From positions 3,647 to 67,646 of the IMG/VR virus record IMGVR_UViG_2927713021_000002: a stretch of DNA of 64,000 bases. One strand, given 5' to 3'. Below are positions 10,946 to 64,000 of the stretch, piece after piece. The translations under genes were made by a program, and so were the position numbers. The notes under the pieces are model-generated. The model did not search any database, was not told the DNA's origin, and worked only from the letters and a program-made list of their open reading frames with translations. Numbering within the stretch: position 1 is the stretch's first letter; every line of letters starts with the position of its first letter. This stretch comes from a virus (Duplodnaviria > Caudoviricetes).

Positions 10946-11121
10946 AAGCCGCATAATGCAACGAGTTGTGCGCAAATGCAATTGATGCGGCAGCGCACCG
11001 GCCAGCCTGCGCTTGGCAGAGCGCGGCAATCCAATGGCGTATCGTCCCTGCATCGCCGGGCAAAAGTCTGTAACATTGCCGGTTTCAAAATCGCCCACCG
11101 AATCACGCTGTAAGGCCCCGA

Positions 11122-11163
11122 ATGTCTGACCTCTCCGCGCACACTCCAATGATGCAACAGTAG
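11122..11163 (+). pseudogene. mutS': Stranded native 5' end of mutS (MSDLSAHTPMMQQ*)
   Basis: Matches the MutS N-terminus HTPMMQQY; truncated by TAG at the att junction; preceded by GCTGTAAGGCC SD region. Confidence 0.9.
11146..11162 (+). repeat. attL core CCAATGATGCAACAGTA
   Basis: Identical 17-mer at 61448-61464 (23 bp with one mismatch if extended to CACAC). Confidence 0.92.
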
Positions 11164-11211
11164 ATGCTTGATCAGTGCATAGGGCGCGCCGTTACTGGGC
11201 TGCGCGGCCAT

Positions 11212-11289
11212 GCTGTCTAATACAGATTGCGAGCTTTCCGCGAGTTTCGACCAGTAAAGTCGCGAAGCTATCGAGCAGTATTAGACAGC
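11212..11289. repeat. Imperfect 78-bp palindrome containing putative integrase arm sites (TGTCTAATA)
   Basis: GCTGTCTAATAC (11212-11223) / GTATTAGACAGC (11278-11289); TGTCTAATA recurs at 61392-61400 near attR. Confidence 0.7.
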
Positions 11290-11336
11290 TAAACCCCCCT
11301 CCTCCGGCGTCCTGCCGACCGAATCCCCAACCAAAA

Positions 11337-11630
11337 CTACAACGTCCGACACCACCACGACTGCGCATACAGCACGCCGTCAACCTCCTCCACACCATTG
11401 ATGTTGATGCCGAGCTGGGCCATGCCATTCACCTTCGCATCGTGCAGACGCGGGATGACGTCGGCGCCGGGCGAATGGGTGAAGACCCAGGCCTGCGTGG
11501 ACACCCTGCCCAACGGCGCGCTGTGGTGATCGCCGATGTGGATGTCTGCCTTTAGGGCCTGGATCTTCCCCAGCTGATCAGTCGGGATGGCCACGCCCAG
11601 CTTGCGCCGCCGGACGATCAGGAAGTACAT
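11337..11630 (-). CDS. Hypothetical protein coupled to the UmuD-like gene
   Basis: 97-aa ORF overlapping the end of the upstream S24 gene. Confidence 0.7.
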   Translation of the reverse strand: MYFLIVRRRKLGVAIPTDQLGKIQALKADIHIGDHHSAPLGRVSTQAWVFTHSPGADVIPRLHDAKVNGMAQLGININGVEEVDGVLYAQSWWCRTL

Positions 11631-11992
11631 GACATCGGCCCGTGGCTGCGCAGGCTGTAGGTAACCACGCCCCAGACAGAGAACTCGTCACCCTCCATGA
11701 TGAACCGCGGCGCGTACCGAGGATTCTCCGAGCGCAGCACGATCTGCCGGCCAACATAGTCGAGCCGCTTGCAGACTGGCTCGCCGTTCACCGCCGCGAT
11801 GACGATGTGGCCGGCCCGCGCATCAATCGCCTTGTCGACGATCGCCACGTCCTCGTCGAAGATCCCCGCACCCTGCATGCTGTCGCCGTCGATCCTGACC
11901 AGATACACATTGGGCGCATGCACCTGCATCAGTTCGTCGAGGGATATGGCCTGCAGGTCTTCGACGTATTCGAATGGGTTGGCGGCTGTCAT
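11618..11992 (-). CDS. UmuD'-like (HumD-like) S24 peptidase
   Basis: GDSMQGAGIFDED, VNGEPVCKRL, WGVVTY. No N-terminal arm or cleavage dipeptide; starts near the YVE motif. Confidence 0.8.
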   Translation of the reverse strand: MTAANPFEYVEDLQAISLDELMQVHAPNVYLVRIDGDSMQGAGIFDEDVAIVDKAIDARAGHIVIAAVNGEPVCKRLDYVGRQIVLRSENPRYAPRFIMEGDEFSVWGVVTYSLRSHGPMSCTS

Positions 11993-12005
11993 GCTTGGCT
12001 CAATA

Positions 12006-12021
12006 CTGTATATAGATACAG
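12006..12021. promoter_or_regulatory. LexA (SOS) box
   Basis: CTGTATATAGATACAG (CTGT-N8-ACAG), 13 bp upstream of the UmuD-like ATG. Confidence 0.88.
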
Positions 12022-12051
12022 TATCTTATGGCAGATTGTGGCTTACGACAA

Positions 12052-12594
12052 TTACCGGTCAGCGGGCGCGCTCATCCCGCCCATGATCGACTCGCACGCC
12101 AGCCCAGCTATTCGACTTCGCTCAAGCGCTTCCGCGAGGCTTCCCGCCATTCGGTCAGCGTCTTCAAGCAATCCCCCGAGCACCATGACGGGAGAGGTTC
12201 CTGTCGCGCGCTGCTGGGCAGCGATGGTACTGCAGGTTGCTGCTCGACCGTCGCGCAGTCGGGCGATTTCCCCGCGCAGGCCGACAGAGCCAGACTCAGC
12301 AGTAGCAGCGCGGTCTTTGAGTTTCGCGATAAGCTCGTCACTTTCCCTTCCCTTTTCGTCTGCCAGCGCTTGCCGGCGCTGCTCTTCGGTTCTGGCCTGC
12401 GCCGCGGCACGCCGGTCGCGCTCGGAGACCTCCAGCCGGTAACTGGCCAGGCCCTGCTCTGCTTCGGCGGTCGCGGCCCGGGCATCTGCCGCCGCTCCCT
12501 CGGCAATCACCACCCGGTACTGCTGGCCACCGGCAACCAGCACCAGCGCGATCAGCCACCAGCACCAGGCCGGCGCCGAGCCGAGCCAGGTCAT
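12052..12594 (-). CDS. Rz-like i-spanin
   Basis: N-terminal TM, coiled-coil, C-terminal AGLACE; follows endolysin. Confidence 0.82.
   Translation of the reverse strand: MTWLGSAPAWCWWLIALVLVAGGQQYRVVIAEGAAADARAATAEAEQGLASYRLEVSERDRRAAAQARTEEQRRQALADEKGRESDELIAKLKDRAATAESGSVGLRGEIARLRDGRAATCSTIAAQQRATGTSPVMVLGGLLEDADRMAGSLAEALERSRIAGLACESIMGGMSAPADR
12108..12341 (-). CDS. Rz1-like o-spanin lipoprotein embedded in Rz
   Basis: GTG start, signal KTALLLLSLALSA-C lipobox, Pro-rich; nested out of frame in Rz. Confidence 0.72.
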   Translation of the reverse strand: MTSLSRNSKTALLLLSLALSACAGKSPDCATVEQQPAVPSLPSSARQEPLPSWCSGDCLKTLTEWREASRKRLSEVE

Positions 12595-13217
12595 GCCAGC
12601 ACCCGCACGGCGATGTCGTACAGCGCTTTTCGCTCAGCAGCGCCATGCGGCACGCGCCCAGGCTTGCCGGTATTGATGATGCTGCCGATGTCCTGGATGC
12701 GGCCGGCGTCTGCCAGCTCGTTAAGCCCGTGCTTCGCCCACCACCACGCAGCGGACTGCGCAGCGTGCTCGGCCTGCTCGAGCAGTTCCGGCTGATCCTC
12801 TAGCGGCAGCCCCAGCGCGGCGCCGGCTGCCTGGTAGTTGTCGCGCCCGGTGAGCTGGATCAGCCCGCGACCCCGGTACCGCCAGCCATCCCCCGATGAT
12901 TCGGGACCATTACCCATGCGCCCGCTGTAGACACGATTGGCGATTTTCTCCGGCTGGCGGGCATATGCCGGCGCAGTCTGGGCGGTGAACCTGCTGGGCC
13001 AGGTACGAACCAGCGCGTCGGCGCTGTAGTTGAGGTTCTCGACCAAAACGCGCAGCTGCCCAGATTCGTGGCCGATCTGCGCCAAGAAGGCGGCGGCGCG
13101 CAACCGGCTGTCGATCTTCCAGCGGACCATGGCTCGGTTTAGCGCAGGCAAAAAAATGCCCGCTACGGTGCGGGCTTTTGGCAGAACCTGCAGCAGCTGC
13201 TGCTCGGTGATGGGCAT
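12591..13217 (-). CDS. Endolysin, glycoside hydrolase family 19
   Basis: AAFLAQIGHESG, ENLNYS, YRGRGLIQLTGRDNY, SAAWWW. Confidence 0.92.
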   Translation of the reverse strand: MPITEQQLLQVLPKARTVAGIFLPALNRAMVRWKIDSRLRAAAFLAQIGHESGQLRVLVENLNYSADALVRTWPSRFTAQTAPAYARQPEKIANRVYSGRMGNGPESSGDGWRYRGRGLIQLTGRDNYQAAGAALGLPLEDQPELLEQAEHAAQSAAWWWAKHGLNELADAGRIQDIGSIINTGKPGRVPHGAAERKALYDIAVRVLA

Positions 13218-13484: not shown

Positions 13485-13536
13485 TCCGAGATTTTGAAAA
13501 CTTTTGAGCATTGCAACGCATACAAGGATTGCCAGC

Positions 13537-14127
13537 GTGACAAAGAGAAGCAACCTATTTGTTCTACTGGCTTCTGTAACCGCGATAGCATTTGTTGTGC
13601 TGCTTGGTGAATGGAAGCTAAACAAGAAAAGCATTTGGGACGAAATAGCTGAGAATTCGCCATTGGATGCACAAAGAGCAGCCGTATTTATGGCGAAAGA
13701 GTCAAGATTACTAACTGATGCCGAGCTTTCTAATCTAGCAAGAACCATCGTCAGCTCCAGAGAGATAAAGTTTTCTCAAGCAATCACAAATGAACTCATA
13801 TACAAAACACAAAACAGTGAAGCCAAGAAGCTGGCAGTATACATAGCTGAACAAGGATTTATCGCCAAAGGCGACATATTGCTCTCTAATCGGGCCGCCC
13901 TAGAGTACAAAATTGGTAGATTTGTTCCAAGAAACCTTGAAAAAGCGACTATCATTTTTTCAAGCCCAACACTGAAAAACGTCCCAATATCCAAGTTCTA
14001 CTTGGCTGAGATTCTGCTAGACAATGACAACCCAAAAAAAGACCCAAAGACAGCAAAAGAGCTGCTGACAGAATCTGCAAATTCAGGGATAGAAGCAGCA
14101 AAGCAAAAACTTAAGGAACTACAGTGA
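13537..14127 (+). CDS. Membrane-anchored protein with C-terminal Sel1-like repeats
   Basis: GTG start after AAGGA; N-terminal TM; GRFVPRNLEKA and KDPKTAKELLTESANSGIEAA resemble Sel1; AT-rich. Confidence 0.65.
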   Translation: MTKRSNLFVLLASVTAIAFVVLLGEWKLNKKSIWDEIAENSPLDAQRAAVFMAKESRLLTDAELSNLARTIVSSREIKFSQAITNELIYKTQNSEAKKLAVYIAEQGFIAKGDILLSNRAALEYKIGRFVPRNLEKATIIFSSPTLKNVPISKFYLAEILLDNDNPKKDPKTAKELLTESANSGIEAAKQKLKELQ

Positions 14128-16160
14128 ACGCTACAAAGTATAGGCCGGACATCGACGGACTCCGCACAATAGCCGTTATGGGCGTAATCCTATTCCACAT
14201 GAGCTTATCGTTCATCCCGGGCGGCTTTGTAGGAGTAGACGTTTTCTTTGTTATTTCTGGATTTCTAATCACCGGCTTGATCAAGGATGCCGTTGATAAA
14301 GACAGGTTCAGCCTCTCTAACTTCTACATCCGAAGAATCAGAAGACTGATCCCGGCAGCAGCCTGCACAATCACAGTATCTTTCGTTTTTTCCACGCTGT
14401 TATTCTCCAGTGAGCACCTTAAGAGCTCAGCAGCCTCTTCAATCGCCGCACTGTTTTCATTATCGAATGTCTGGTTTTGGCTGGAGAGCGGGTACTTCGA
14501 CTCGTCCGCACTGACCAAGCCGCTTTTACATACCTGGACGCTCAGCGTTGAAGAGCAGTTCTATTTCGTATGGCCAGCCGCATTGGTTTTCTTATTATCA
14601 GCAAGGAGTCGTCTCGTTGCTCCACTGATGTTATTCGCCGCCGGCTGTGTGAGTCTATACTTTGCCTGGGCATGGATTAGACTAGACCCAACATCGCCAT
14701 TCTTCTTGATGCCGTTCCGCATCTACGAATTTGCGATCGGTGCGTTAATGACCTGGGCTCCGCGCAACGGGCTGAAGAACTTCCTGAATGAGTTAATTCT
14801 GCTATCAGGTCTTGTGATCGTCGGGTGGTGCATGCTGACCTACACCGAGAACACGCCCTTCCCATCATACTATGCTCTGCTTCCATGCCTGGGCACAGCC
14901 ATGATCATTTACTCTGGCGAGGCGAGGTTCTCAGGCTTACTTCTGCGAAACAGGGCTATGACATGGGTTGGCGAGCGCTCCTACTCACTATACCTGACGC
15001 ACTGGCCGGCTATTGTTTTTTACACATACTACGTGCTTTCTCAGCCTACGGCGTTAGACCTTGCCATAATCGGCCTAATCACTCTGGCCACGGCCCAATT
15101 TCAATACAAATATATTGAGGTCCCTTTCCGGCTAAACCACGCCGTCGCGAAAAATTTTAGCAACCGTAAATTCGCCGCATACCTGGCTATTCCAGTTTGC
15201 CTGTTGGTATATGTCGGGACAATGGCATACGTACAGGACGGCTGGAAATGGCGAATTGCCAGCTATGGAAAGACTGATTCCCCAGTCACACAGAGCATCG
15301 ACCTTCGTCGCAATGAATGGCAAACATCGCTAATTTCAACGTATGCGAATGCTCAGGACGTTGGCTCCCGAAAGTTGGACGCAAAAACCGCGCTAATCAT
15401 CGGCGATAGTCACGCTGCCCATATACGTAGCGCATTCGACTACATAGGCAAAAAATATAATATTCGCGTCACTCTATGGTATTACGTTGGTTGCAATCCT
15501 CTGTTCGGAACAACTCATGTGTTCGCCGCTCCCGACCCGAGAGAGGAAGGGTGCAAGATCCAGAACAATGCATGGGAGAACCACCTAAAGTCGAACAGGT
15601 ACGACTACATCGTAATTTCATCACGCTGGGCGTGGGCAGTTGAGCCAAGCGAGTATGGACAGTACAAGGTCCCTCAGCAGTATATAGTTGATGTGAGCAA
15701 CCCAATAAAAACCTTGGAGGAGTCAAGGAAGGTATTTGCACAAAGCCTAGACAGGACAGTGAAAGCGGCACTACAAGCATCTGGACAGGTGATTCTTTTT
15801 GCTCAGTCACCAAACATAGGAAAGTCGCTAGATGGCTGCGACAACGTTCCTCGATATATCCTCTCGGAAGAGCAAGTAATCGAAAGATGCAAAACCATCG
15901 ACAAAGGATTAATCCTGAAGAGACAGCAATTCACCAATAGCGTGATACGCACTGTAGCACAACAAAGCAACAGGATTCACGCGGTGATACCAACCGAATT
16001 ATTCTGCAAAAGCAGTGAGCCTAACTGCATTACCTCGTATGACGGATACCGACTTTTCCAGGACGAAACACATTTCACGGTTGAAGGAGCAAAATACTTG
16101 GCGCTCGAGTGGGAAAAATCTGTAGATTTCCCATTCACAAAAGCAGTATCCGATAAATGA
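14124..16160 (+). CDS. O-acetyltransferase, acyltransferase-3 + SGNH (OafA/OatA-like)
   Basis: YRPDIDGLRTIA, GFVGVDVFFVISG, RRIRRL, HTWTLSVEEQFY, SYSLYLTHWP; periplasmic IGDSHA and DETH. Confidence 0.92.
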   Translation: MNATKYRPDIDGLRTIAVMGVILFHMSLSFIPGGFVGVDVFFVISGFLITGLIKDAVDKDRFSLSNFYIRRIRRLIPAAACTITVSFVFSTLLFSSEHLKSSAASSIAALFSLSNVWFWLESGYFDSSALTKPLLHTWTLSVEEQFYFVWPAALVFLLSARSRLVAPLMLFAAGCVSLYFAWAWIRLDPTSPFFLMPFRIYEFAIGALMTWAPRNGLKNFLNELILLSGLVIVGWCMLTYTENTPFPSYYALLPCLGTAMIIYSGEARFSGLLLRNRAMTWVGERSYSLYLTHWPAIVFYTYYVLSQPTALDLAIIGLITLATAQFQYKYIEVPFRLNHAVAKNFSNRKFAAYLAIPVCLLVYVGTMAYVQDGWKWRIASYGKTDSPVTQSIDLRRNEWQTSLISTYANAQDVGSRKLDAKTALIIGDSHAAHIRSAFDYIGKKYNIRVTLWYYVGCNPLFGTTHVFAAPDPREEGCKIQNNAWENHLKSNRYDYIVISSRWAWAVEPSEYGQYKVPQQYIVDVSNPIKTLEESRKVFAQSLDRTVKAALQASGQVILFAQSPNIGKSLDGCDNVPRYILSEEQVIERCKTIDKGLILKRQQFTNSVIRTVAQQSNRIHAVIPTELFCKSSEPNCITSYDGYRLFQDETHFTVEGAKYLALEWEKSVDFPFTKAVSDK

Positions 16161-16193: not shown

Positions 16194-18389
16194 CTAAAAG
16201 TTTCGCCCCACCTCAAGCCAGACGCCATTCTCCCTACGCAGCGTAATAAAGTTGTTAGTGCTGGACGGCACTACGTTGGCATTACCCTTGAGCCGCATTA
16301 CGGCTGAGTTGTGGACCAGGGTGGTGAATCCGTCGAGCCTAACCCGAATGTCCCTCCTGTCAGTTGCATCGTCGAATGTGGTAACGGATACCGCCGAAGT
16401 GTTCGCCAGATTGTTCTCCTTCCACAGGCCTACGCTAGGGGTTGTGTCACCTGTCGGCAAAGAGTTAACTGACCAGCCACTATCGAACGGCATGTTTCCT
16501 TCCACCTCGATGAAGTGGTTGAGGAAGCGCGGCAGGGAGAAGCTTGCAGCTGTAGAGGTGCGCTCAAATACCTGCTTTTTAAGAACGTTATTTGCGAACG
16601 ACCCGCTGTTCATCTCTATTACCTTCATCTGCCAAGCATGCTTGCTGGAATAGACAGTATTGCCGTCAACTACTAGGCCGGTGAGCGAGTGAACGCCTTT
16701 ATTGTCGTTGATCTGACCGAAGTACATAGCCGTAGGGACAGTGGCCTTGGTCGATACCGCACGAATATCATTGTTTCGCACGGTGACGTTGTTCATGTTT
16801 GCAACGGAAAGATCGTTCAGGGACGATCCCTTGCCTTGAGCGAAGTGCTCAACTGCTGTTTGCGTCGAGTTCCATGCGCTTTCCACGCCGATAAAGGCAC
16901 GGTAGCAGTCTCCGACGAGGTCGTTGTCTTCGATCAGGCAGTCAGATGAGTCGCAGTGAACATAAATGTGATAATCGCCAGTGACAACGTTGTTCGACGT
17001 CTTGGTCTTGTTGTTGGTGATCTTGCAGTTCGGCGAACTGAGGCCGACCTTGATCAACGCTTCGCCGATCCACTGGTCCTCTGGGTATATTCGGTTGTTG
17101 TCGATGGTCAGCTCGCGGCAGCCATAGCCAGCCAAGATGCCGGCCGATACGTTGCGGCGAATCTGATTCATAGCTAACAAGCCTTCGCTGGAGGTCCACT
17201 CCATAGCAATGCCACGGATGTTATTGCGGCACCAGTTGCCCACGATCTCCGAATATAGCGCACTGATGTTGGTAATTCCGTAATAGCCACCATCTAGTTC
17301 GTTGAATGCTATGGTGTTCCGGGTGGCAAGAATTGTTCCAGATGGTGCAACGCCAAGCGCAACGTAGTAGGCAACCGCATCCGCATAAGGGGCGATATTC
17401 AGGTCGCAGGCGATAGAGATCGGATACCAGCGGATACCAGTGTTGTCCTTTGTGATGCCTGGAATACCGCGAATATTGTTGAATGCGATAGTGTTGCCCG
17501 ACACCTGCTCAACGCCGGTAGCGAAAGCAAACAGAAGAATGCCGTAGCCATGAACCATGTTGATGATTCGGTTGCCAATGAACTTACAATCTTGGCAGTT
17601 CTCCCCCTCGAAAACGCGCAGACCGCTACCGCCCTCAAGATTGTTGGCATCGAACCTACCAAAATTGCAGACAAAGTTCTTGACGTTTTCGGTTTCCCCG
17701 CTACGAATCCCGCGAAGCCTAAAGCCAGCCGAGGGCGAGGTAAACTTGATCGAGCCGCCATTCCACTGGAACCCCCTAAGCCCGTTGCGGATGTCCACTT
17801 TCCCCGCCTGCTCGTATACGCCCGGAGGAAATACTACGTATCCGCCAACTGCTCTGGCAGCTTCGACAGCGGCCTGAATGGCGCCGGTGTTATCGATCCC
17901 TGGAGTTGGCTCGGCGCCGTGGGCGGTGATACTCACAGGAACTCCACTGAGAGCTTGCGCGACAGTTATGTCCCCGTAACCAACCATTTTTGCGCCAGCA
18001 GAAGAAGCAAGAGCCTGTCGTAGCGCAGCATCCCCTACGGCCTGCAGCTTGGGCGCGTCAGTGGCCCAGGTTCCGGTGAGGGTAAGCGGTATATCAGCTG
18101 CGTTCGTAACCCGGTACAGCTCGCCAGCGCGCTGCACGAGCTGGGTCTGGCGATCGACAACGACGCCAGCGCCATAGGTAAGGTAGACCGACTCATAGCC
18201 CTGTGCGATCAGGTAGTCCGTTACCTGCTGCATGATGCCGACCCAGGACTTGAGAGGCACACCAAGGCGGTTCAGATATTCCCCAAGTTGCCCCGTGAGC
18301 AGCAGATCGATGATGGCAGTATTATCGTAAAGGTCGCGCGGATCGCTCGAGCCATCGGTTCCAACCGGGTTGCCAGTGTTGTAGCGCAT
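16194..18389 (-). CDS. Tailspike / receptor-binding protein with parallel beta-helix (putative depolymerase)
   Basis: MRYNTGNPVG...DPRDLYDN anchor, DNTGAIQAA...VVFPPGVY pectate-lyase-like start, Asn/Ile-rich repeats. Confidence 0.85.
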   Translation of the reverse strand: MRYNTGNPVGTDGSSDPRDLYDNTAIIDLLLTGQLGEYLNRLGVPLKSWVGIMQQVTDYLIAQGYESVYLTYGAGVVVDRQTQLVQRAGELYRVTNAADIPLTLTGTWATDAPKLQAVGDAALRQALASSAGAKMVGYGDITVAQALSGVPVSITAHGAEPTPGIDNTGAIQAAVEAARAVGGYVVFPPGVYEQAGKVDIRNGLRGFQWNGGSIKFTSPSAGFRLRGIRSGETENVKNFVCNFGRFDANNLEGGSGLRVFEGENCQDCKFIGNRIINMVHGYGILLFAFATGVEQVSGNTIAFNNIRGIPGITKDNTGIRWYPISIACDLNIAPYADAVAYYVALGVAPSGTILATRNTIAFNELDGGYYGITNISALYSEIVGNWCRNNIRGIAMEWTSSEGLLAMNQIRRNVSAGILAGYGCRELTIDNNRIYPEDQWIGEALIKVGLSSPNCKITNNKTKTSNNVVTGDYHIYVHCDSSDCLIEDNDLVGDCYRAFIGVESAWNSTQTAVEHFAQGKGSSLNDLSVANMNNVTVRNNDIRAVSTKATVPTAMYFGQINDNKGVHSLTGLVVDGNTVYSSKHAWQMKVIEMNSGSFANNVLKKQVFERTSTAASFSLPRFLNHFIEVEGNMPFDSGWSVNSLPTGDTTPSVGLWKENNLANTSAVSVTTFDDATDRRDIRVRLDGFTTLVHNSAVMRLKGNANVVPSSTNNFITLRRENGVWLEVGRNF

Positions 18390-18446
18390 ATTTTCTCCGG
18401 GCATGAAAAAGCCCGCTCAAGGCGGGCATGCTCGTTAAGGGTCCGG

Positions 18447-21161
18447 TCAAGCCGGTGGGAAGTTGTCGTCGTCCAGGTAGACGCGCTCGTCGTAGTTCAC
18501 AGCGGTGACGTTGCAGCTCACGGTCCCGCTCGGATTGACCTCTTTGATCAGGGCCGGGTAGCAGAACTTGGCCTTAGGCCCGAACTGGATAACAGGCGCG
18601 TCCATTGCGCTATCCAGAACCGGCACGAAGTCCAGCTCAGGGATGGTCAGGCGGTAGTCATCGATGCGGGTGGCGACATAGGGGCCAGAGGCGCTGCCAT
18701 CCCGCCGGCGCAGGGCAATCCAGTGTTCGCCCCCGGCAGACCAGTTGAGCGGCTCGGTAGAAACCAACATGTGCAGGCTTCCCAGCTTCGCGTAGCCTTT
18801 GAGCATCGCGCTCTGCCCATAGCCTGGCGTGGTATCACCCAGTAGCGCGTAATCGAGGTAGCCGCTGTTGAGCGCATCCAACTCTGTCGAGAAGCTGTAG
18901 CGCTTGCGCTGGTAGACCTGCTGCCGCCGGCGACGCATGCCGATACGCCATGCTCGATGCTCATCACCAACGCCATCGATCTTCACCTTCTCGGTGCGCA
19001 GACCCAGATCCCCGGGCAGTCGGCACTCGACGGTCTCAACCTGCCAGGTTGCGGAGCTGAGGTATTCGACGTCCACGCCATCGAAGTCATCCTCGGTGAC
19101 GTGCTCGGCCTCTCGTTTGAGGGGCTTGGTCATGATTTGCGGGTTGTACATGTGGTCAAAGTCCGGCCCGCGCGGCTCGTCACGAACCGGTCGGATCAGA
19201 CCTCTATCGATGGTCAGTTCCGAGAATCCGGCTTGCAGCGCCTCGATCATGCAGGCCTTGACAGTGCTGGCCGACTCGATGGTGCGGTCGTAGAAGTCGC
19301 CGCGGGCCGTCCACAGCGCTTGCAGGCGATCCAGTTCGTCCAAGTCGAGATCTGAGTTGCCGTCCTCGACCGAATAGCCAACGCTTTGCGCAATGTAGCC
19401 GATCCAGGCTGCGATATCTCTGGTTGGCTCGGGCGAAGTCCATGCCCCACCGCGCCTGGTGCGCAGCTTGCGCGTGGCGATGACCGATACCTGGCTTTCA
19501 GACTGGGATGCGATCCGGTTGCCGCCCTTTACCCGCAGGGCCAGCAGCGTGACACCGGCATAGCTGGTCGGCGCGGGGAGGTTGGCGCGCAGGCCGTACC
19601 ACTGGACGGTGTTGGCGTCCTGGGTGCTGGTGGACTTGGCGCCGATGCGGCGCATCCGCACCTCTGGCCGGATGCTCCCTGGAATATCAACCATGAATTC
19701 AGTGAACCCGAGCTGATCCAAGGTCTTCTGGGTGTAGGTCTTCTTGAACGAGGTCCAGGCGCCAGCCAGGGTTATGTCTCGATACTGCATCTCGACGGTC
19801 ACCGACAGGTTGTTCAGGTCACCCTTCCCACCCACATGCACAAGGCCTTGCGGGAAGAAGATGTCCCAGGCGATACGCGAAGTAGTGGTGCCCGCTGGGC
19901 AGGCTGGGAATGGCCCGGACCAGTCACCCTCTTGCGTAGAACCGTCCAGAGTCAATACGGCCGCCGAGGTGGTCAATGTGTCAAACCCAGGCCATGTGGT
20001 GTCGTTGTCGCCTGCGGCGTTCATGCGCTCAACCGATATCGCGGCCGTGCTGGCTGCCGTGATGCGGTATCGCAGGCCGCGGAATCCAATGCCCATGACC
20101 AGACCAGTTCCGACTGCCAAGCCGGTGGCAGCGCCACCGGCTGCCCAGTCCAGGGTCATCTCATCCGGCGCGGAACCGACACCAGGTGTATAGGTGGCGA
20201 CCGTGTAGTTACCCGCGTTCGCCCCGACGATCTCAATTTGCATCCCTGCAGTCAGAGCGAACTGGTCGAGGCTTCCCCGAATGATGTCGCGCCCGGACCC
20301 GCCGTCAATGACGTCCAATGGGTAGCCCACCTCAATCCTCACGATCATGCCGGCGGCCCAACCAGCAGGAAACTGCCCGGCACCGGTAGGCACCGTGATT
20401 GTCTTGCTGGCGAATTGGTATGACTGTGCGTCAGGAACAGGCGTTACGGCGTAGGTCGCCTTCAGTTCGATACCAGCTGTACCGGTGGAGGTTGCGCCCA
20501 CTTCCGGCGCCGAATGCCACCACTGCGCAGCCGGCTCATTGGAAAGGTCGGCACCAGGCTCGTAGATTGTAAATTCGGCATCGGCACCCAGCGAGATCAC
20601 AGGGGTTTCGCCAATCAGGATGCTGCTGACTGGAATGTCATAGCTGCCCTTGCCCACCACCAGCAGCATCTCGATCCACTGAGAGCGCGGGTCTTCAAAG
20701 TAGCGGTTTGGCGGGAGCGCATAGTCCGGGTATGGGCGCTGACGGCCGGCGATCTCGCGAATGACCGCGTTCAGCTTCACCTGGTTGCCCTTCACGGTGG
20801 CCAAGCCAAGGTCGTTCCCACGCTTGGTGTTGCCGCCACTGTTCAGGGAAGGCATCTTCGGCATGAGAGCGCTCATGACCGCCTTGGCTCCGAACACGAG
20901 CGCGAAGGTGATCGAGAACGGATCTGTACCCTTTGGCTCTCGGTATATTTGGACGCTATCTTCGGGTCCGAACTCAATAGACGCCCACTGCGTCGGCAGA
21001 GCCCGCTCACCGTTGACGAACACGCTCATCGGCAGCGCTGCAGGCTCGACCTCTTCCGGCAAACCGTCCGCGCGGAACCATGCCAGCAGGCTCTGGCGTT
21101 TTTTGACCGCGCAGAACTCCGCTGGCCCGGCAGCGAGCTTGTTGGGGTAGATTTCGATCAT
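18447..21161 (-). CDS. Tail tip / host-specificity (TipJ-like) protein
   Basis: 904 aa; IREIAGRQRPYPDY, FDGVDVEY, C-terminal VNYDERVY; last gene of the tip cluster. Confidence 0.82.
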   Translation of the reverse strand: MIEIYPNKLAAGPAEFCAVKKRQSLLAWFRADGLPEEVEPAALPMSVFVNGERALPTQWASIEFGPEDSVQIYREPKGTDPFSITFALVFGAKAVMSALMPKMPSLNSGGNTKRGNDLGLATVKGNQVKLNAVIREIAGRQRPYPDYALPPNRYFEDPRSQWIEMLLVVGKGSYDIPVSSILIGETPVISLGADAEFTIYEPGADLSNEPAAQWWHSAPEVGATSTGTAGIELKATYAVTPVPDAQSYQFASKTITVPTGAGQFPAGWAAGMIVRIEVGYPLDVIDGGSGRDIIRGSLDQFALTAGMQIEIVGANAGNYTVATYTPGVGSAPDEMTLDWAAGGAATGLAVGTGLVMGIGFRGLRYRITAASTAAISVERMNAAGDNDTTWPGFDTLTTSAAVLTLDGSTQEGDWSGPFPACPAGTTTSRIAWDIFFPQGLVHVGGKGDLNNLSVTVEMQYRDITLAGAWTSFKKTYTQKTLDQLGFTEFMVDIPGSIRPEVRMRRIGAKSTSTQDANTVQWYGLRANLPAPTSYAGVTLLALRVKGGNRIASQSESQVSVIATRKLRTRRGGAWTSPEPTRDIAAWIGYIAQSVGYSVEDGNSDLDLDELDRLQALWTARGDFYDRTIESASTVKACMIEALQAGFSELTIDRGLIRPVRDEPRGPDFDHMYNPQIMTKPLKREAEHVTEDDFDGVDVEYLSSATWQVETVECRLPGDLGLRTEKVKIDGVGDEHRAWRIGMRRRRQQVYQRKRYSFSTELDALNSGYLDYALLGDTTPGYGQSAMLKGYAKLGSLHMLVSTEPLNWSAGGEHWIALRRRDGSASGPYVATRIDDYRLTIPELDFVPVLDSAMDAPVIQFGPKAKFCYPALIKEVNPSGTVSCNVTAVNYDERVYLDDDNFPPA

Positions 21162-21553
21162 TGCCGATCTCGGTAGTAGATGATGGTGTTGTGGTCGCGC
21201 TCCCACTGGTGCAGCGGTAGGCAGCGAGCACCACGGGCGGGGTTGATCTCAAGTACCTTGAGCCGCCCGCCAGCATTAACCACCAGGGCAACATGAACGC
21301 AGAGAGCGCCGCGCATTACGGCAGCAATGGCCCCAGGCTCTGGCCCGCACACCTCCATGTGCTCTGCCTCGGCCCGGTATGCCCGGGTGAACTCCTTCGG
21401 CTCGTTGTTGCGAACATGGCCCCAGTTCGGCAGCAGCCGTTGTCCTAGGTGCAGGTGACGCGCCTCCCTGCAGAGCCCCCAGCAGTCATACCTTTCTGGA
21501 CCGCGAGCGCCGTCCTCATACCTGCAGGACAGGTATCTGTTGATCCATTCCAT
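21158..21553 (-). CDS. NlpC/P60-like tail tip protein
   Basis: GARGPERYDCWGL, HVALV. Confidence 0.8.
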   Translation of the reverse strand: MEWINRYLSCRYEDGARGPERYDCWGLCREARHLHLGQRLLPNWGHVRNNEPKEFTRAYRAEAEHMEVCGPEPGAIAAVMRGALCVHVALVVNAGGRLKVLEINPARGARCLPLHQWERDHNTIIYYRDRQ

Positions 21554-22070: not shown

Positions 22071-22522
22071 GCTTCGGGCCACTCCCTGTTAACAGCCATG
22101 TCGATGATGTTCATCATGAACCAGAACTGCGGGAAGTCCTCCCAGCCAGGCTGGATCAGCGAAGGCTCGCGCAGCTCGAGAGTCGCCGACATCTCCCATC
22201 TGGTGATTTGCACTAGCCGTGGCCCATCCGGCTTACCAGTGAATCGGCACTCGAAATTCTGAAATCCTTCCGGAAGCTGCAGCGGCATGCTGAACCACTC
22301 GACGCCGTAGTTCAGATTCCGCGCATACCAGCCCCTGAAGAATGCCGCCTGGTTCGTGTCGAAGTTCCAGGTGAAGCTCACAGTTTCTGGAGCGCTCTCG
22401 AAGTTCAGCCTCTGCCGCGCCCGTCCGGACTCCATGGGTGTTCGAATCATGGGATCTACCGGGGTGCGCAGCTCGTAACCGTTTTGTAGTGGCAGAGGCA
22501 GCTCTGCTGGATATTCGATCAT
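22067..22522 (-). CDS. Distal tail protein
   Basis: YPAELPLP...RTPMESGRARQR; directly after the tape measure. Confidence 0.75.
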   Translation of the reverse strand: MIEYPAELPLPLQNGYELRTPVDPMIRTPMESGRARQRLNFESAPETVSFTWNFDTNQAAFFRGWYARNLNYGVEWFSMPLQLPEGFQNFECRFTGKPDGPRLVQITRWEMSATLELREPSLIQPGWEDFPQFWFMMNIIDMAVNREWPEA

Positions 22523-25500: not shown

Positions 25501-26175
25501 GGCTGATTCTGCCTGCCGGGCAGCAACTGCAACTTTCTGCGTTGTCTCGGCTACGCGGCCCTGATTGGAGGCAAGGATCATGTTCCCCGAAAGCAGGCCT
25601 TGCTCTGCTTCGGACAGCCCAATCGCTGCGCTGGCAAGGTTGCGCTGATCTTGTGCGGCTTTTACGGACGCCTCAGCAACTGCGAGGATTCTCACGCGAG
25701 CCTGCTCAGCGCTCTCGCCAACAGCCTTTTGAGCGGTTGATACACCTGTCAACGAGGTAAGTGACTCCTGCAACTTTCGGCTGTAGGAGTCGAAAGCCGT
25801 GGCATTGATCTGCCCAGAGTTGCGGGCCTGGACCAGCGCAGCTTCCTGCGCGGCCAAGTCGTTCAGCTTCTTGGTCAAGGGATCAATCTTGCCAAGCAGG
25901 CTATCCAGCTCCTTTCGCTGGGAGGCTGCGGCTTTGGCGGCTGCGTCTGCGCTTTTGGCGGCAGCGTCGTTGGATGAGGTGACCTTGTCGTTAGCGGCCT
26001 GGACCTTGGACAGAGCCATAGCCAGGTTGGCGTAGTCGCCTCCAGACTTTCTAAGCGTCGAGCTTGCTCGCACGCCAGCCTGTTCAAGGGCCTCAAGAGC
26101 TGCCCGAATGTCATTGACTTGCTGCTCGGCACTTCGTCCGTCGACTTCAAGCTCGAGCCGAGATTTCAGCGCCAT
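22519..26175 (-). CDS. Prophage tape measure protein
   Basis: 1218 aa Ala/Gln-rich; QFTDIFTSIAAGQ...LQQGGQLKD; C-terminal GFSEGGYTGSGGKYEPAGVVHKGE. Confidence 0.92.
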   Translation of the reverse strand: MALKSRLELEVDGRSAEQQVNDIRAALEALEQAGVRASSTLRKSGGDYANLAMALSKVQAANDKVTSSNDAAAKSADAAAKAAASQRKELDSLLGKIDPLTKKLNDLAAQEAALVQARNSGQINATAFDSYSRKLQESLTSLTGVSTAQKAVGESAEQARVRILAVAEASVKAAQDQRNLASAAIGLSEAEQGLLSGNMILASNQGRVAETTQKVAVAARQAESATRKQSDGLQDLLESIDPTTRALNRLDEQERKLAQKKKIGAIDADTFAQYQGKIDQARAALAGFDDGLKRTGISAKQNAQALRMVPMQFTDIFTSIAAGQPIMMVALQQGGQLKDSFGGIVPAAKALSGYVLGLVNPFTVAAAAAAVLALAYKQGSDESSAFNASLAMTGNTAGTTTAQLAGMAQQVSAAGGTVGKAAAVLAQLAASARIPVSAFESITRAAIDFESATGQAAEETVSNFKKIAKDPVAEILRLNESMNFLTASTYEQIKALQEQGNTQAAAQIANDAYEQGLNRTSKGVRDNLGYIESSWKAVAGAAKAAWDAALNVGREKSLDDQLRALDEQLNAIAESASRKKQRNPRGAQADPLSNLTPSDTFRQESLEAQKTQLLIKKAEDDRRAAAKGFAQQQQQQALDDQVSLDRMRKETESNADKRARELAEYRLLVERRVTQARASGDNSILITAEQQAKDIAAINEKYKDARTPKGPQYREDAGQRMLDEARQRYAVLQQQSSVIAGEVEQTQKLGAEARKLIELETEIANLKEKKTLTTSQKQVLAMAELNLAQQKQNAELEKANQLTKERYENEAKLKAFRENLTSQNDLAKEGLDSSLAGVGLGDKGRQRLQDDLKIRQDYQKQLDKLSRDYNKIQNPTDNDTSLYESETAALQAALAVRIGYQQDYYTQQDEMRGQWLLGVSGSWQNYVDMATDYNQQARDATASILSDTTSSISSSIQGVITQTMSLGDAFVNLGTTMAGSVLGALSDITAQWLVTQALKMAGITAETTAVVSAEGTKAAAKVAADGIAEASSLSTIATTLAANVAAAVETLASWAPAALVASIGSFGAAAAVGGTALIAAYALIRGISGGFSEGGYTGSGGKYEPAGVVHKGEVVWSQADISRFGGVASVEALRKGNVTPIRGSNSSASAQNTSGTQVGSQMPQPIVQIFEDASKAGTSQTTRQGNQDFIKVWVASVMGDDEAHQALQAKYGLQAVGS

Positions 26176-26229
26176 GGCTTTCTCCGGGCATAAAAAAACC
26201 CGCCGAAGCGGGTCGTTGTTCTGTAGGTG

Positions 26230-28554: not shown

Positions 28555-28621
28555 GCGAATGTCTCCTTTATGCGGGCATAAAAAAACCCGCTCAAGGCGG
28601 GCAGGATCAGGGTCTTGCAGG

Positions 28622-45554: not shown

Positions 45555-45588
45555 AGCGACGTCCTCAACAGTGGTTCTACGCGCCCAG

Positions 45589-45654
45589 TATGACCGGCGG
45601 TATTGTTGCTCGTCAATACCGCCGCTATTGGTAGCGCCAATACCGGTGGTCATA
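45589..45654. promoter_or_regulatory. OR region: three 17-bp operators with divergent pR/pRM
   Basis: TATGACCGGCGGTATTG (45589-605), CAATACCGCCGCTATTG (45614-630), CAATACCGGTGGTCATA (45638-654). Confidence 0.85.
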
Positions 45655-59351: not shown

Positions 59352-60365
59352 ATGAGGCCGCGAAAGAAGGACAGGCATCTGCCGCCGTGCATGTACATCA
59401 AGCACGGCGCCTATTACCTGGTGAGGAAGGGAAAGTGGGAGCGCCTCGACAAGGATTACCAAGGCGCGCTCCTCGCCTACGCAAAGATCATGGGCGGAAA
59501 AGGCCAGGGCGCGATGCCCAAGCTAATCGACGACGCTCTTGACTCAATGCGCAAGCGGCTGGCGGAGAACACGGTCAAGCAGTACGAGGCTGCGTCAGCC
59601 AAGCTGAAGCACCACTTGGCCGAGTTCGAGCCGCGCCAGGTGCTGCCGAGGCATGTGGCGGCTTTGAAGATGCACATGGCCGATACGCCGAACATGGCAA
59701 ACCGTGTGATCTCGTTCCTTCGGATGGTCTTTGCATATGCCCTGGAGCAGCAGCTTGTTGATTCCAATCCTTGCACAGGCATCAAGAGACACACAGAAAA
59801 GAAGCGCGACCGCTATATCACGGACGAAGAGTTTGCCGCGATCTGCGGCGCCTGCTCCCCTTACATCCGATCCATCCTTCAGATGTGCTACCTGACCGGC
59901 CAGCGCATCGGCGACGTGCTGGCAATCAAGCTTGCTGACATCAGCGACAATGGCATCGCTTTCGAACAGCAAAAAACTGGCGCAAAGCTGGTAGTGGCAA
60001 TGACGCCAGATCTGAAAAAGCTGATAGCTAGGGCGAATTCACTGCCGAGGAAGGTGCGCGGCGTCACCCTATTCTGCACGCGTGGTGGCGGCCGTCCGGT
60101 GTCCTACTCGACAGTGAAAGACGCCTTCAGAAAGGCTTGCGAAGAAATCGGTGTAGCCAGCGCGACAATTCATGACCTTAGGGCGAAGTCGTTGACAGAC
60201 ACTGACAAGCAGGGCAATGACGCACAAAAGCTGGGTGGGCATACAGATGCTAGGATGACTCAGCGCTATCTTCGGCTTCGGGAAATGAAGGTCGCTATCG
60301 GGCCTACGCTGGGGGACGAGGGGTCTGCAAGGCAAATGCGGGAAATGAAAAAGCCCCTCGAATGA
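59352..60365 (+). CDS. int: Tyrosine integrase
   Basis: TGQRIGD (R), QQKTG (K), HDLR, GH, TQRY (Y). Confidence 0.93.
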   Translation: MRPRKKDRHLPPCMYIKHGAYYLVRKGKWERLDKDYQGALLAYAKIMGGKGQGAMPKLIDDALDSMRKRLAENTVKQYEAASAKLKHHLAEFEPRQVLPRHVAALKMHMADTPNMANRVISFLRMVFAYALEQQLVDSNPCTGIKRHTEKKRDRYITDEEFAAICGACSPYIRSILQMCYLTGQRIGDVLAIKLADISDNGIAFEQQKTGAKLVVAMTPDLKKLIARANSLPRKVRGVTLFCTRGGGRPVSYSTVKDAFRKACEEIGVASATIHDLRAKSLTDTDKQGNDAQKLGGHTDARMTQRYLRLREMKVAIGPTLGDEGSARQMREMKKPLE

Positions 60366-60375
60366 GGGGCTTTTT
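60348..60375. terminator. Bidirectional intrinsic terminator
   Basis: AAAAAGCCCCTC-GAAT-GAGGGGCTTTTT between convergent genes. Confidence 0.85.
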
Positions 60376-60389
60376 CTCCAATCCGCCAG

Positions 60390-60560
60390 TCAAGCGACTA
60401 GGACTGGCTCAGCCAAACCGTTGGCTGCACAGATCTGATGGATATCACGCGAAGCCTGCTTGAAATCCGCAACCGACTTTCGAGATTTCTCAAGGTTTTC
60501 ATTTCGCGCACCCTGCGACATGGGCTTAAGATTTCGCAACGATTTCCCAACCATCTGCAT
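60390..60560 (-). CDS. Small basic protein downstream of the ClpP-like gene
   Basis: GGAG SD then ATG; 56 aa; ends just before the terminator. Confidence 0.5.
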   Translation of the reverse strand: MQMVGKSLRNLKPMSQGARNENLEKSRKSVADFKQASRDIHQICAANGLAEPVLVA

Positions 60561-60604
60561 ATCTCCCATTCCTTTTCTCACTTTCTTTCAGTTCTATCAT
60601 GTTT

Positions 60605-61237
60605 TCAGACGGGAATCAGTACGTCCTGGTTCCCTAGATATGCTTCTTGAAGTCGGGCCAACCAATGACGATACGTTAGCCCGTCCTCCTCACAAATCAA
60701 GCTTTCGGCCGGCGCATCTCTTTCTTTACCGTCGAGCCCCTGCAACAGCAGCGCTCTGTGCACATCGTTAAACAGATCATCGAACAACTTGAACTGCTGC
60801 TCCAAGGGTTCCTTGAGCGGATGCCCAGGCTCAACCTCATCAGCGAAACAGATGTACTCACCCGCTTGAACCCTCCTAGGCCTGTGGTACATGACCACGC
60901 CAGGCTTCAGGGGAGGCAAAGATTGAACATTAGGCGTGCCTCTGACCATAAACCATAGCCAGATAGTAGCTGCTGCACTCATCACATAACGACCGAACGT
61001 GATTTCGACCATGCCTTTGGTCTCGTTCAGCGCCACAATCAGATCAATCATCGTGTTGACGCAACCGCCGCCATTGTGGCGAAGGTGTAGCTCAAAGCTA
61101 CTGCCAGCCTGTGCAGCGTGCAGTTGATCGATTACAGGCTGAACCGATGCCCGCGATATCTCGTTAGGAAGCTCCAGCCTAATTTTGACAGGAACCCTTA
61201 CGATTGCGTCCAGCTGATCATTTGCTGCAGCTTCCAA
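60605..61237 (-). CDS. ClpP/crotonase-like serine peptidase
   Basis: NGGG-28 aa-S(AAA) spacing as in ClpP GG...S; VMYHRP matches VMIHQP; candidate Asp in NQDVLI. Confidence 0.65.
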   Translation of the reverse strand: MEAAANDQLDAIVRVPVKIRLELPNEISRASVQPVIDQLHAAQAGSSFELHLRHNGGGCVNTMIDLIVALNETKGMVEITFGRYVMSAAATIWLWFMVRGTPNVQSLPPLKPGVVMYHRPRRVQAGEYICFADEVEPGHPLKEPLEQQFKLFDDLFNDVHRALLLQGLDGKERDAPAESLICEEDGLTYRHWLARLQEAYLGNQDVLIPV

Positions 61238-61423
61238 TGCTTTCGCCTACCAACCCTTGATTTGGACGCGAATAGTACATTGCCGCATGACCAGTGCCAA
61301 TATGCAATCACGTAGCTGATGAGCAATTCTTTGCCCCGCAAGCGGGGGAATCTTGGCAGAATACCCGCCTCAGTTTTAGACGAATCCCATATGTCTAATA
61401 GACAAGCAGCTGTAAGGCCTTGA

Positions 61424-64000
61424 ATGTCCAGCATTTCTGAACACACCCCAATGATGCAACAGTACTGGCGGCTGAAAAATCAGCACCCGGACCAGTTGAT
61501 GTTCTACCGCATGGGCGATTTCTACGAGATCTTCTACGAAGACGCGAAGAAAGCCGCCAAGCTGCTGGACATCACCTTGACCGCGCGCGGCCAGTCGGCC
61601 GGCCAGTCGATCCCGATGTGCGGGATACCGTTCCATTCGGCAGAGGGCTACCTGGCCAAGCTGGTCAAGCTCGGCGAGTCGGTGGTGATCTGCGAGCAGA
61701 TCGGTGATCCGGCCACCAGCAAGGGCCCGGTCGAGCGTCAGGTGGTGCGTATCATCACTCCTGGCACGGTGAGCGACGAGGCGCTGCTCGATGAGCGCCG
61801 CGACAACCTGATTGCCGCCGTGCTCGGCGATGAGCGGCTGTTCGGCTTGGCCGTGCTGGACATTACCAGCGGCAACTTCAGCGTGCAGGAAATCAAAGGC
61901 TGGGAAAATCTGCTGGCCGAGCTTGAGCGGATCAACCCGGTCGAGCTGCTGATCCCGGATGACTGGCCACGCGACCTGCCGGCTGAGAAGCGCCGCGGTT
62001 GCCGGCGCCGTGCCCCGTGGGACTTCGACCGCGATTCGGCGCGTAAGGGCCTGTGCCAGCAGTTCGCGACCAAGGACCTCAAGGGCTTTGGTTGCGACAA
62101 GCTGACCCTGGCGATCGGTGCCGCAGGCTGCCTGCTGACCTACGCCAAGGAAACCCAGCGCACCACCCTGCCGCACTTGCGCAGCCTGCGCCACGAGCGC
62201 ATGGACGACACGGTGATCCTCGATGGCGCCAGCCGGCGCAATCTGGAGCTGGACATCAACCTGGCCGGTGGCCGCGACAACACTCTGCAATCGGTCATCG
62301 ACCGTTGCCAGACCGCCATGGCCAGCCGCCTGCTGAGCCGTTGGCTGAACCGCCCGCTGCGCGACCAGAAGGTGCTGCAAGCGCGTCAGGAATCGATCCG
62401 CTGCCTGCTCGACGGCTATCGCTATGAAAAGCTGCAGCCGCAACTCAAAGAGATTGGCGACCTGGAGCGGATCCTGGCCCGGATCGGCCTGCGTAACGCC
62501 CGTCCGCGCGACCTGGCGCGACTGCGCGACGCCCTCGCCGCCCTGCCTGAGCTGCAAAATGCCATGGCAGACCTGGAGGCGCCGCACCTGGCCCGCCTGG
62601 CGGCCATCACCGGCACTTACCCGGAGCTGGCCAGCCTGCTCGAGCGAGCCATTATCGACAACCCGCCCGCAGTTATCCGCGACGGTGGTGTGCTCAAGAC
62701 CGGCTACGACAGCGAGCTCGACGAGTTGCTGGCCATGAGCGAAAACGCCGGCCAGTTCCTGATCGACCTGGAAGTGCGAGAAAAAGCCCGCACCGGCCTG
62801 CCCAACCTCAAGGTGGGCTACAACCGGGTGCATGGTTACTTCATCGAGCTGCCCAGCAAGCAGGCCGAACAAGCGCCTGCCGACTACATCCGTCGGCAGA
62901 CCCTCAAGGGCGCCGAGCGCTTCATCACGCCAGAACTGAAAGCCTTCGAAGACAAGGCGCTGTCGGCCAAGAGCCGGGCCCTGGCGCGCGAGAAGATGCT
63001 CTACGATGCGCTGCTGGAAAACTTGATCGGCCACCTTGCGCCGCTGCAGGACAGCGCCGCAGCACTGGCCGAGCTGGACGTGCTGAGCAACCTCGCCGAG
63101 CGCGCTCTGACCCTCGACCTGAACTGCCCAAGCTTTGTTGACGAGCCCTGCCTGCGGATCGAGCAAGGCCGCCACCCCGTGGTCGAGCAGGTGTTGACCA
63201 CGCCGTTCGTGGCCAACGACCTGGGCCTGGACGACAGCACGCGCATGCTGATCATCACCGGCCCGAACATGGGCGGTAAATCGACCTACATGCGCCAGAC
63301 CGCACTGATCGTGCTGATGGCGCACATTGGCAGTTTCGTCCCGGCGGCGCGCTGCGAGCTGTCGCTGGTCGACCGCATCTTCACCCGTATCGGCTCCAGT
63401 GATGATCTGGCCGGCGGCCGTTCGACCTTCATGGTCGAGATGAGCGAGACTGCCAACATCCTGCATAACGCGACCGACCGCAGCCTGGTGCTGATGGATG
63501 AAGTCGGCCGTGGCACCAGCACCTTCGACGGCCTGTCGCTGGCCTGGGCCGCCGCCGAGCGCCTGGCGCAACTGCGCGCCTATACCCTGTTCGCCACGCA
63601 TTACTTCGAATTGACGGTACTGCCCGAGAGCCAGCCGCTGGTGGCCAACGTGCATCTGAACGCCACCGAGCACAACGAACGCATTGTCTTCCTGCACCAC
63701 GTCCTGCCAGGCCCTGCCAGCCAGAGTTACGGCCTGGCGGTGGCGCAACTGGCCGGCGTACCCGGCCCGGTGATTCAACGTGCACGCGAGCACCTGAGCC
63801 GACTGGAAACTGCCAGCCTGCCTGGCGAGGCTGTAACCAGCCCAGGCAAAGCTGTGCATGACCCGCATGTCCCGCACCAGAGCGACCTGTTTGCCAGCCT
63901 GCCGCATCCTGCCATCGAAAAGTTGGGCAAGCTCGACCTGGATGACATGACCCCGCGTCAAGCTATCGAAATGCTATATCAACTGAAGAACCTGTTATAA
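61424..64000 (+). CDS. mutS: DNA mismatch repair protein MutS (first codons phage-derived)
   Basis: [37 protein letters not shown]; 858 aa, intact. Confidence 0.98.
61448..61464 (+). repeat. attR core CCAATGATGCAACAGTA
   Basis: Identical to 11146-11162. Confidence 0.92.

Follow-up and report, generated by a model that had tools for sequence, protein, structure and literature searches.

Results

The 5′ end of mutS is duplicated at the two ends of a prophage

The DNA analysed here, called the window, is a stretch of 64,000 nucleotides (nt) from an IMG/VR virus record (IMGVR_UViG_2927713021_000002, positions 3,647 to 67,646) in which a prophage lies inside the 5′ end of mutS, a mismatch-repair gene, in a Pseudomonas host. 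A repeat search identified a 56-nt imperfect direct repeat on the plus strand, with one copy at the left attachment junction (attL, 11107–11162) and the other at the right junction (attR, 61409–61464), the two being identical at 45 of 56 positions (80%). Both copies open with the 11-mer GCTGTAAGGCC, which occurs exactly twice in the window, compared with a mean of 0.05 in shuffled sequences and no shuffle out of 100 with two or more copies. Both close with an exact 17-bp core, CCAATGATGCAACAGTA, located at 11146–11162 and 61448–61464; counted from core to core, the spacing of 50,302 bp gives the length of the prophage. At either junction the core encodes the residues P-M-M-Q-Q-Y of MutS (with 2 nt of the last codon), and the insertion thus falls inside the HTPMMQQ-coding sequence of mutS, a site also used by the mutS-resident elements of Chu et al. 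(2017).

At attL the leader GCTGTAAGGCCCCGA (11107–11121) stands directly 5′ of an ATG at 11122, from which the peptide MSDLSAHTPMMQQ is read up to a TAG stop at 11161–11163, leaving an orphaned mutS head of 11122–11163 on the plus strand. At attR the leader GCTGTAAGGCCTTGA (61409–61423), which contains AAGG at 61414–61417, stands directly 5′ of an ATG at 61424 that opens an 858-codon MutS frame reaching the end of the window. This working copy of mutS (61424–64000, plus strand, continuing beyond the window) consists of eight codons at 61424–61447 that encode the head MSSISEHT, the core at 61448–61464, in which the crossover lies, and a remainder of host origin. Over residues 1–8 the attR head differs from that at attL (MSDLSAHT) by three changes, D3S, L4I and A6E. 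The attR frame holds all five MutS Pfam domains (I–V) and Pfam MutS_I begins at residue 8, which places the substituted residues N-terminal to the folded domain; because they precede domain I, the re-headed MutS would most likely be fully functional. A preliminary description of this DNA had quoted the same junction sequences and reported the 17-bp shared core, the change of three of the first eight residues and the preservation of mutS, and each of these points was reproduced here: the junctions were found exactly as quoted, and the gene retains a ribosome-binding site, an ATG and 858 codons in frame with the five domains.

An empty site defines the polarity of the two heads

A Pseudomonas shirazensis genome (locus L014) aligns to the window at 8122–11162 with 97.9% identity and at 61409–64000 with 98.5% identity. 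The two alignments overlap only within the repeat and nothing aligned between them, which makes L014 an empty site and delimits the prophage body to 11163–61447, where genes on both strands were assigned to phage by PHROG and Pfam. The uninterrupted mutS of L014 begins with MSDLSAHT, identical to the attL head, and its upstream sequence is also that of attL; the native intergenic region between prtR and mutS (10946–11121, plus strand) is collinear with the empty site at 97.9% identity. Conversely, the leader, AAGG, ATG and eight codons at 61409–61447 are absent from the empty site, and the leader and head at attR are conserved alongside the integrase across relatives. Because the empty-site head is identical to that at attL, the attL head is native, and the 5′ leader, the AAGG ribosome-binding site and the head MSSISEHT at attR are phage-derived. 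Two further features of the elements of Chu et al. are thereby found here: the start left behind upstream agrees with that of mutS in a close relative, and the translation start now in use is supplied by the element.

The collinearity of L014 with both flanks supports the earlier claim that a prophage has integrated in mutS and left the native start and upstream region 50 kb away, and the empty site likewise bears out the assignment of the start codon, ribosome-binding site and residues 1–8 of functional mutS to phage DNA. The preliminary description had noted that uninfected relatives carrying MSSISEHT would speak against it; this head was present in none of 80 Pseudomonas mutS loci. Since the 17-bp core is exact and a crossover inside it regenerates the L014 sequence, excision is predicted to be scarless and in frame.

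The same arrangement recurs in related prophages and in a free phage

Among IMG/VR records, twelve loci encode an integrase 67–88% identical to that of the window, and the order integrase, short head, mutS was found in 11 of them; two related loci end at the edge of their record, a few bases past the integrase gene (int) and before the site. Such an integrase also lies beside mutS in 3 of the 80 Pseudomonas species genomes, each time with a short non-native head. Both junctions could be read in six lysogens. The host head at attL and the phage head at attR are MSDLSAHT and MSSLSDHT in G002; MNKAISDLSSHT at attL is paired with MSDLSSHT in G003 and MTDLSSHT in G004; and MSKNTSDLSSHT at attL is paired with MTDLSSHT in G250, MSDLSSHT in G210 and MESLSSHT in G179. 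In each of these pairs attL and attR have 14 nt of the core in common, ATGATGCARCAGTA, the right edge of which always falls after TA. In fluorescens-group hosts, lysogeny makes MutS four residues shorter.

We scanned 401 Pseudomonas genomes, one per species and evenly drawn, with the 23-nt motif that codes for HTPMMQQY. One copy was present in 376 genomes (three of which, G103, G155 and G374, are unpublished), two or more in 19 and none in 6, and the reversed pattern, used as a control, gave 0 matches. Ten of the 19 multi-copy genomes carry inserts with the integrase type of the window (G051, G116, G131, G153, G179, G195, G210, G250, G297 and G399), with an att spacing of 16.4–57.0 kb where both copies are on one contig, so that the prevalence is 10/401, or about 2.5% of the sampled species genomes. 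Within this group, G116 (L128, L144) has a 16.4-kb element in mutS with the same integrase type (67% identity) and a head of apparently seven residues, MDLSSHT, and could represent a satellite or a remnant. In G195 (L134, L150) the phage head equals the host head over 41 nt and the leaders differ, which suggests that heads can be exchanged or homogenised between host and phage.

The remaining multi-copy genomes are of other kinds. G256 and G304 look like assembly duplicates. A second exact copy elsewhere in the genome was observed in seven (G018, G039, G209, G211, G259, G359 and G364; loci L125, L130–L132, L136, L138, L141, L146, L148 and others), at 0.1–1.8 Mb from mutS and often on the other strand in five of them and on another contig in G359 and G364. 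No mutS-like head or window-type integrase flanks these second copies, some of which continue as a decayed mutS-like reading (e.g. YRKMVKNQ), and they may be att sites of other elements.

The phage attachment site (attP) is intact in the free phage phiAH14a (KU708004), an inducible, packaged Pseudomonas phage (Dziewit and Radlinska 2016, PMC4936722); in the main text of that paper, mutS, attP, attB, 'integration site' and 'mismatch' have no occurrence. Its integrase gene is related to that of the window (67% nucleotide identity) and is followed by a 51-nt spacer with arm motifs, an ATG with the head MTDLSSHT, and then more phage DNA. One side of this attP matches the attR arm of G051 at 99.9% over 1,125 nt and the other side the attL arm of G051 at 98.5% over 206 nt; the att spacing in G051 equals the length of the phiAH14a record, 55,060 bp. 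The phiAH14a site thus shares with the window an attP layout that includes a mimic of the mutS head, and differs from it in the head sequence and the host group.

Probable arm sites and coding-type conservation of the phage head

The motif TWWTAGAC has five matches in the 64-kb window (shuffle mean 1.32), and all five fall in the two att arms. Two lie in the P′ arm, within 140 nt past the attL core (11215–11222, minus strand; 11279–11286, plus strand), and three in the P arm just upstream of the phage head (61374–61381, 61396–61403 and, on the minus strand, 61393–61400). The P-arm block is kept in 11 of 11 clade-A relatives, and the motifs are probably arm-type sites of the integrase. Conservation of the phage arm 5′ of the mutS ATG extends over only about 60 nt, which are occupied by these sites and the ribosome-binding site. 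Variable sites among the 11 clade-A phage heads comprise six third, one first and no second codon positions, as would be expected of a phage-borne head that is translated and subject to purifying selection.

The distance from the int stop codon to the mutS ATG defines two forms. In 4 of 11 loci (L001, L004, L006 and L009; the short form) it is 50–51 nt, and in the window and six other loci 997–1,866 nt of DNA are inserted between the two genes. The 1,058 nt in the window carry an open reading frame (ORF) of 210 amino acids (60605–61237, minus strand) located between int and attR and opposed to both int and mutS; short-form relatives lack this insert. The ORF, which has no assigned function, had no Pfam and no PADLOC match. 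It has a promoter-like site of its own on the minus strand (61300–61272), and its upstream sequence recurs in L003 and L010.

Gene content of the prophage and its host flanks

The interval is a complete-looking lambda-like temperate siphovirus prophage of the Pseudomonas putida group, with genes for integrase, cI/Cro-type immunity, terminase, portal, protease, major head protein, tape measure, non-contractile tail and lysis, in host flanks that are about 98% identical to the P. shirazensis genome. The tyrosine integrase (337 amino acids; 59352–60365, plus strand; PHROG 1, Pfam Phage_integrase) has the same orientation as mutS. The immunity region consists of a cI-like repressor with helix-turn-helix and S24 domains (45665–46495, plus strand) and a divergent second repressor-family gene that is Cro-like by position (45360–45653, minus strand), the pair matching PHROGs 35 and 4. 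A PHROG match also identified an exonuclease gene among the early genes.

The virion module (16194–37489, minus strand) was assigned by PHROGs and comprises the large terminase (36209–37489), portal (34419–36212), protease (33270–34403), major head protein (31794–32753), a tail protein (27394–28554), the 1,218-residue tape measure (22519–26175), a 919-residue tail protein (18447–21206; matching PHROG 469 and, more weakly, central tail fibre J) and a tail fibre (16194–18404). Three copies of a 42-nt GC-rich hairpin followed by an A-run lie between tail genes (18392–18433, 26179–26220 and 28567–28608) and are probably bidirectional or minus-strand terminators. Lysis functions are encoded on the minus strand by a GH19-type lysin gene (12591–13217) and a gene for a DUF2514 protein (12052–12594), both identified by Pfam.

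At the attL end of the prophage lie, on the minus strand, a conserved gene without assigned function (phrog_5560; 11337–11630) and a UmuD-like S24 peptidase gene (11618–11992; Pfam Peptidase_S24, PHROG 811), and no UmuC-like partner was seen beside these two. A cargo gene with AT3 and SGNH acyltransferase domains (Pfam; 14124–16160, plus strand, opposite to the tail genes) is probably a conversion gene that modifies surface polysaccharides; its surroundings are low in GC content (0.485 over 14001–16000, compared with about 0.6 elsewhere). An AT3-SGNH gene like it sits upstream of mutS in L045, where there is no prophage. For eight prophage ORFs of unassigned function PADLOC gave no match.

The left host flank (1–10945) is an R-type tailocin cluster with genes for holin, gp25-like protein, baseplate J, Tail_P2_I and tail fibre, which places the prophage between the tailocin and mutS, in the known mutS–cinA hot spot. 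The first gene of this cluster encodes a PrtR/cI-like repressor (10208–10945, minus strand; Pfam HTH_3 and Peptidase_S24) and is divergent from native mutS; in most of the 80 Pseudomonas loci this gene is likewise located upstream of mutS, at a distance of 140–450 nt. The native mutS promoter is presumably contained in 10946–11121 and would now be 50 kb from its gene.

Two ideas on the origin of neighbouring sequences were considered and discarded. The short MSDLS-type heads of the putida group could have been fossils of old insertions; the same heads occur at loci free of phage and tailocin genes, where cinA lies directly upstream of mutS at 170–220 nt (L015, L027 and L033–L037). The tailocin cluster between cinA and mutS could have arrived through the mutS att site; the 16.8-kb interval of the uninfected genome G001 contains no orphan head-like sequence, the best extra head match being 16 nt long (E = 0.052). 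Some putida-group genomes (L024–L026, L039, L045 and L122) have a long MNKAISD(F/L)SAHT head, as do fluorescens-group species. Between cinA or prtR and mutS, these putida-group loci carry cargo genes (GT25, S-type pyocin domain, AT3-SGNH, PhyH), and neither an integrase nor a second core copy was found within 3 kb; the long heads could have been supplied by other elements.

Discussion

A phage that very probably restores the gene it enters

Given the observed structure and polarity, the empty site, the attP of a free phage, the recurrence among relatives and the coding-type conservation of the head, we consider it highly probable that the element is a lambda-like temperate phage whose attP carries a mimic of the mutS 5′ end and restores the gene on integration, i.e. 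a member of the class described by Chu et al. (2017). The tyrosine integrase would recombine attP at a core of 14–17 bp, ATGATGCARCAGTA at its shortest, that encodes MMQQY of the conserved HTPMMQQY motif. The P arm would be ordered as TWWTAGAC arm sites, ribosome-binding site, ATG and eight codons imitating the 5′ end of mutS. Upon integration, an orphan host head of 13 codons would remain at attL beside the native upstream region, and at attR the phage leader and head would be fused in frame to the remaining mutS to give a complete gene. The primary role of the mimic would then be to make a very conserved target usable without turning the host into a mutator, and precise excision within the core would restore native mutS without a scar. 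Excision to a circle that regenerates attB and attP finds indirect support in the L014 empty site and in the intact attP of phiAH14a, the arms of which match attR and attL of G051. Transcription of mutS in the lysogen might originate in the leftward early operon and int, by read-through, or at an unrecognised promoter in the last 120 nt.

Several observations weigh against this explanation or against its class assignment. Within 1.1 kb upstream of mutS (60300–61600, plus strand) no sigma-70-like site was found; because the same scan also missed the native mutS promoter, and promoter and terminator counts were no higher than in shuffled sequences, the scan decides nothing. A phage-supplied promoter for mutS is thus putative and under-expression of mutS is possible in principle. 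The 1,058-nt insert, with its opposed gene and promoter-like site, could hinder read-through from int. In 24 sequencing runs the whole junction was present only in X1, possibly the source assembly, and RNA runs contained 0.08–0.25 of the sampled words. With regard to the integrase, distant homologues were found in 8 of 401 Gammaproteobacteria genomes (E ≤ 1e-30, 29–36% identity), and the motif was absent within about 1.5 kb at all 11 of their loci, four of which belong to the unpublished genome G545. The mutS-adjacent ORF of Escherichia coli 536, one of the strains of Chu et al., encodes a divergently oriented 249-residue DUF4102 protein, unlike the window integrase, and BLASTP found no similarity between the two (E = 0.30); these comparisons do not place the window integrase among the clade of integrases defined by Chu et al.

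A third integrase was observed in G039 (L132, 179–1420, plus strand), a 413-residue Arm-DNA-bind_2 protein whose gene ends 50 nt before a mutS that starts with MNKEIFDLSKHT. Its BLASTP match to the window integrase was weak and off-register (E = 0.023), the E. coli 536 ORF gave no match to it (E = 16), and the spacer between its gene and mutS is free of TWWTAGAC motifs. More than one integrase lineage may use the mutS target, although pairwise BLASTP is a weak test among tyrosine recombinases.

Expression and control of mutS in the lysogen

Mismatch repair sets the mutation rate, so that capture of the mutS start by any element could provide a switch for evolvability; Chu et al. (2017) have already published both this idea and the wide occurrence of such elements. 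Applied to the window, as the preliminary description also proposed, it would place mutS under the control of phage sequences, and a lysogen would differ from a cured strain in its MutS level and mutation rate, or these would change upon induction. The native upstream region has indeed been parted from mutS, which now lies directly downstream of int and the early genes on the cI side; the orientation of mutS is also that of cI, these early genes and int, the int and mutS genes are nearly contiguous in the short form, and no terminator-like site was predicted on the plus strand between 52813 and 61500. Against this, the promoter scans cannot decide, arm sites and the ribosome-binding site take up the short conserved phage arm, and purifying selection on the head fits plain preservation of function equally well. 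We regard control by the phage, with its possible effect on the mutation rate, as a tentative and rather doubtful alternative to gene restoration alone.

A more far-reaching proposal, which we consider unlikely to hold, has two separate parts. In the first, mutS would be the last gene of the leftward early unit of the phage (cI-side, exo, int); in the ancestral layout the int stop and the mutS ATG are only 50 nt apart, with no predicted terminator in this interval. The supply of MutS would then follow the prophage repressor and the SOS state instead of the host promoter shared with the tailocin repressor gene. In the second, at least three tyrosine integrases beside mutS that lack pairwise BLASTP similarity (the window type, the Arm-DNA-bind_2 type of G039 and the DUF4102 type of E. 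coli 536) would have reached the same motif and head-mimic solution independently.

It is very improbable that the element is a defective remnant which silences or weakens mutS and renders the lysogen a mutator, as SpyCI does in Streptococcus. The failure to identify a promoter upstream of mutS and the opposed gene between int and mutS would fit such a remnant. Against it stand a complete complement of genes for virion, lysis, immunity and integration without obvious breaks, an intact mutS with ribosome-binding site and ATG, the coding-type conservation of the head, and the recurrence of the design in 10 of 401 species genomes and in phiAH14a, reported as inducible and packaged (PMC4936722). 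Finally, the two head copies are symmetrical when judged from the window alone, but a native MSSISEHT with MSDLSAHT brought by the phage retains virtually no probability, as L014 joins the attL-side head straight to mutS and refutes it, MSSISEHT is missing from all 80 Pseudomonas mutS loci, and the integrase and arm motifs adjoin the attR head in every relative.

Comparison with known systems

In Pseudomonas, the region between mutS and cinA is a hot spot at which tailocins as well as prophages are found (Mavrodi et al. 2009, PMC2647930; Ghequire et al. 2015, PMC4684702), and the tailocin literature places a prophage of P. putida BW11M1 beside the R-tailocin cluster, between the ptbA-side cargo genes and mutS. 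These reports share the neighbourhood with the window, but in the portions considered here they treat the site as intergenic and mention neither an insertion into mutS coding sequence nor a replaced head. SpyCI of Streptococcus pyogenes has the 5′ end of mutL as its integration site and gives its host a mutator phenotype (PMC4129442, in the portions considered). Both it and the window element are phage-like and occupy the 5′ end of a mismatch-repair gene; in the window, by contrast, mutS is rebuilt with a ribosome-binding site, an ATG and a full frame, so that at the sequence level there is no sign of the abolished expression of the downstream gene that would mark a SpyCI-type switch. The integrases and islands associated with dusA target a conserved 5′ stretch of that gene, and restoration of the 5′ end has been proposed (Farrugia et al. 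2015, NAR, PMC4482086, as far as the sections used extend). They have in common with the window a tyrosine integrase, the conserved 5′ end of a housekeeping gene as target and a 5′ end that is restored or proposed to be so, and are distinguished by the target itself, dusA in place of mutS.

The closest precedent is the 27-kb element that Chu et al. (2017, mBio, PMC5296598) found in a conserved motif at the start of mutS in Vibrio splendidus. According to the parts of that paper drawn on here, this element provides mutS with a new translation start and promoter, leaving the host start orphaned upstream and mutS functional; elements in the HTPMMQQ motif, some of them prophages, occur in hundreds of Beta- and Gammaproteobacteria; scarless excision was detected by polymerase chain reaction in E. 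coli 536, Burkholderia multivorans CF2 and P. putida F1; and excision was hypothesised to toggle mutS between two regulatory regions. Retention of mutS under the control of the element, which the preliminary description had set apart from the Vibrio case as new, was thus already known, P. putida F1 included. The window element shares with those of V. splendidus 12B01, E. coli 536, CF2 and F1 the motif, the orphaned host start, the start supplied by the element and an integrase adjacent to mutS. Its predicted excision is scarless like that of the F1 element and unlike that of the 12B01 element, which leaves a 2-bp deletion. The screen in the same paper required an integrase homologous to that of 12B01 (BLAST E ≤ 1e-6) within 300 bp of mutS. 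With int 1,058 nt away, the window element would have been missed, and short forms would pass if homologous; the strain behind the window may already be in the strain list of Table S2. Among the titles and abstracts of literature on mutS insertion, the mutS–cinA site and Pseudomonas prophages citing Chu et al., no study of a regulatory effect in Pseudomonas was found.

The window element is one more mutS-resident mobile element of the class of Chu et al. and represents a known phenomenon, to which the integrase type, the architecture, the prevalence and the selection on the phage-borne head are modest additions. In the window itself, the prophage is cleanly delimited at both ends and is matched by an empty site in a conspecific genome. 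The survey contributes a prevalence of about 2.5%, the attP mimic of phiAH14a, the coding-like evolution of the head, the shortening of MutS by four residues in fluorescens-group hosts and the near-contiguity of int and mutS in the basic layout, and these facts make the regulatory question directly testable in tractable soil pseudomonads.

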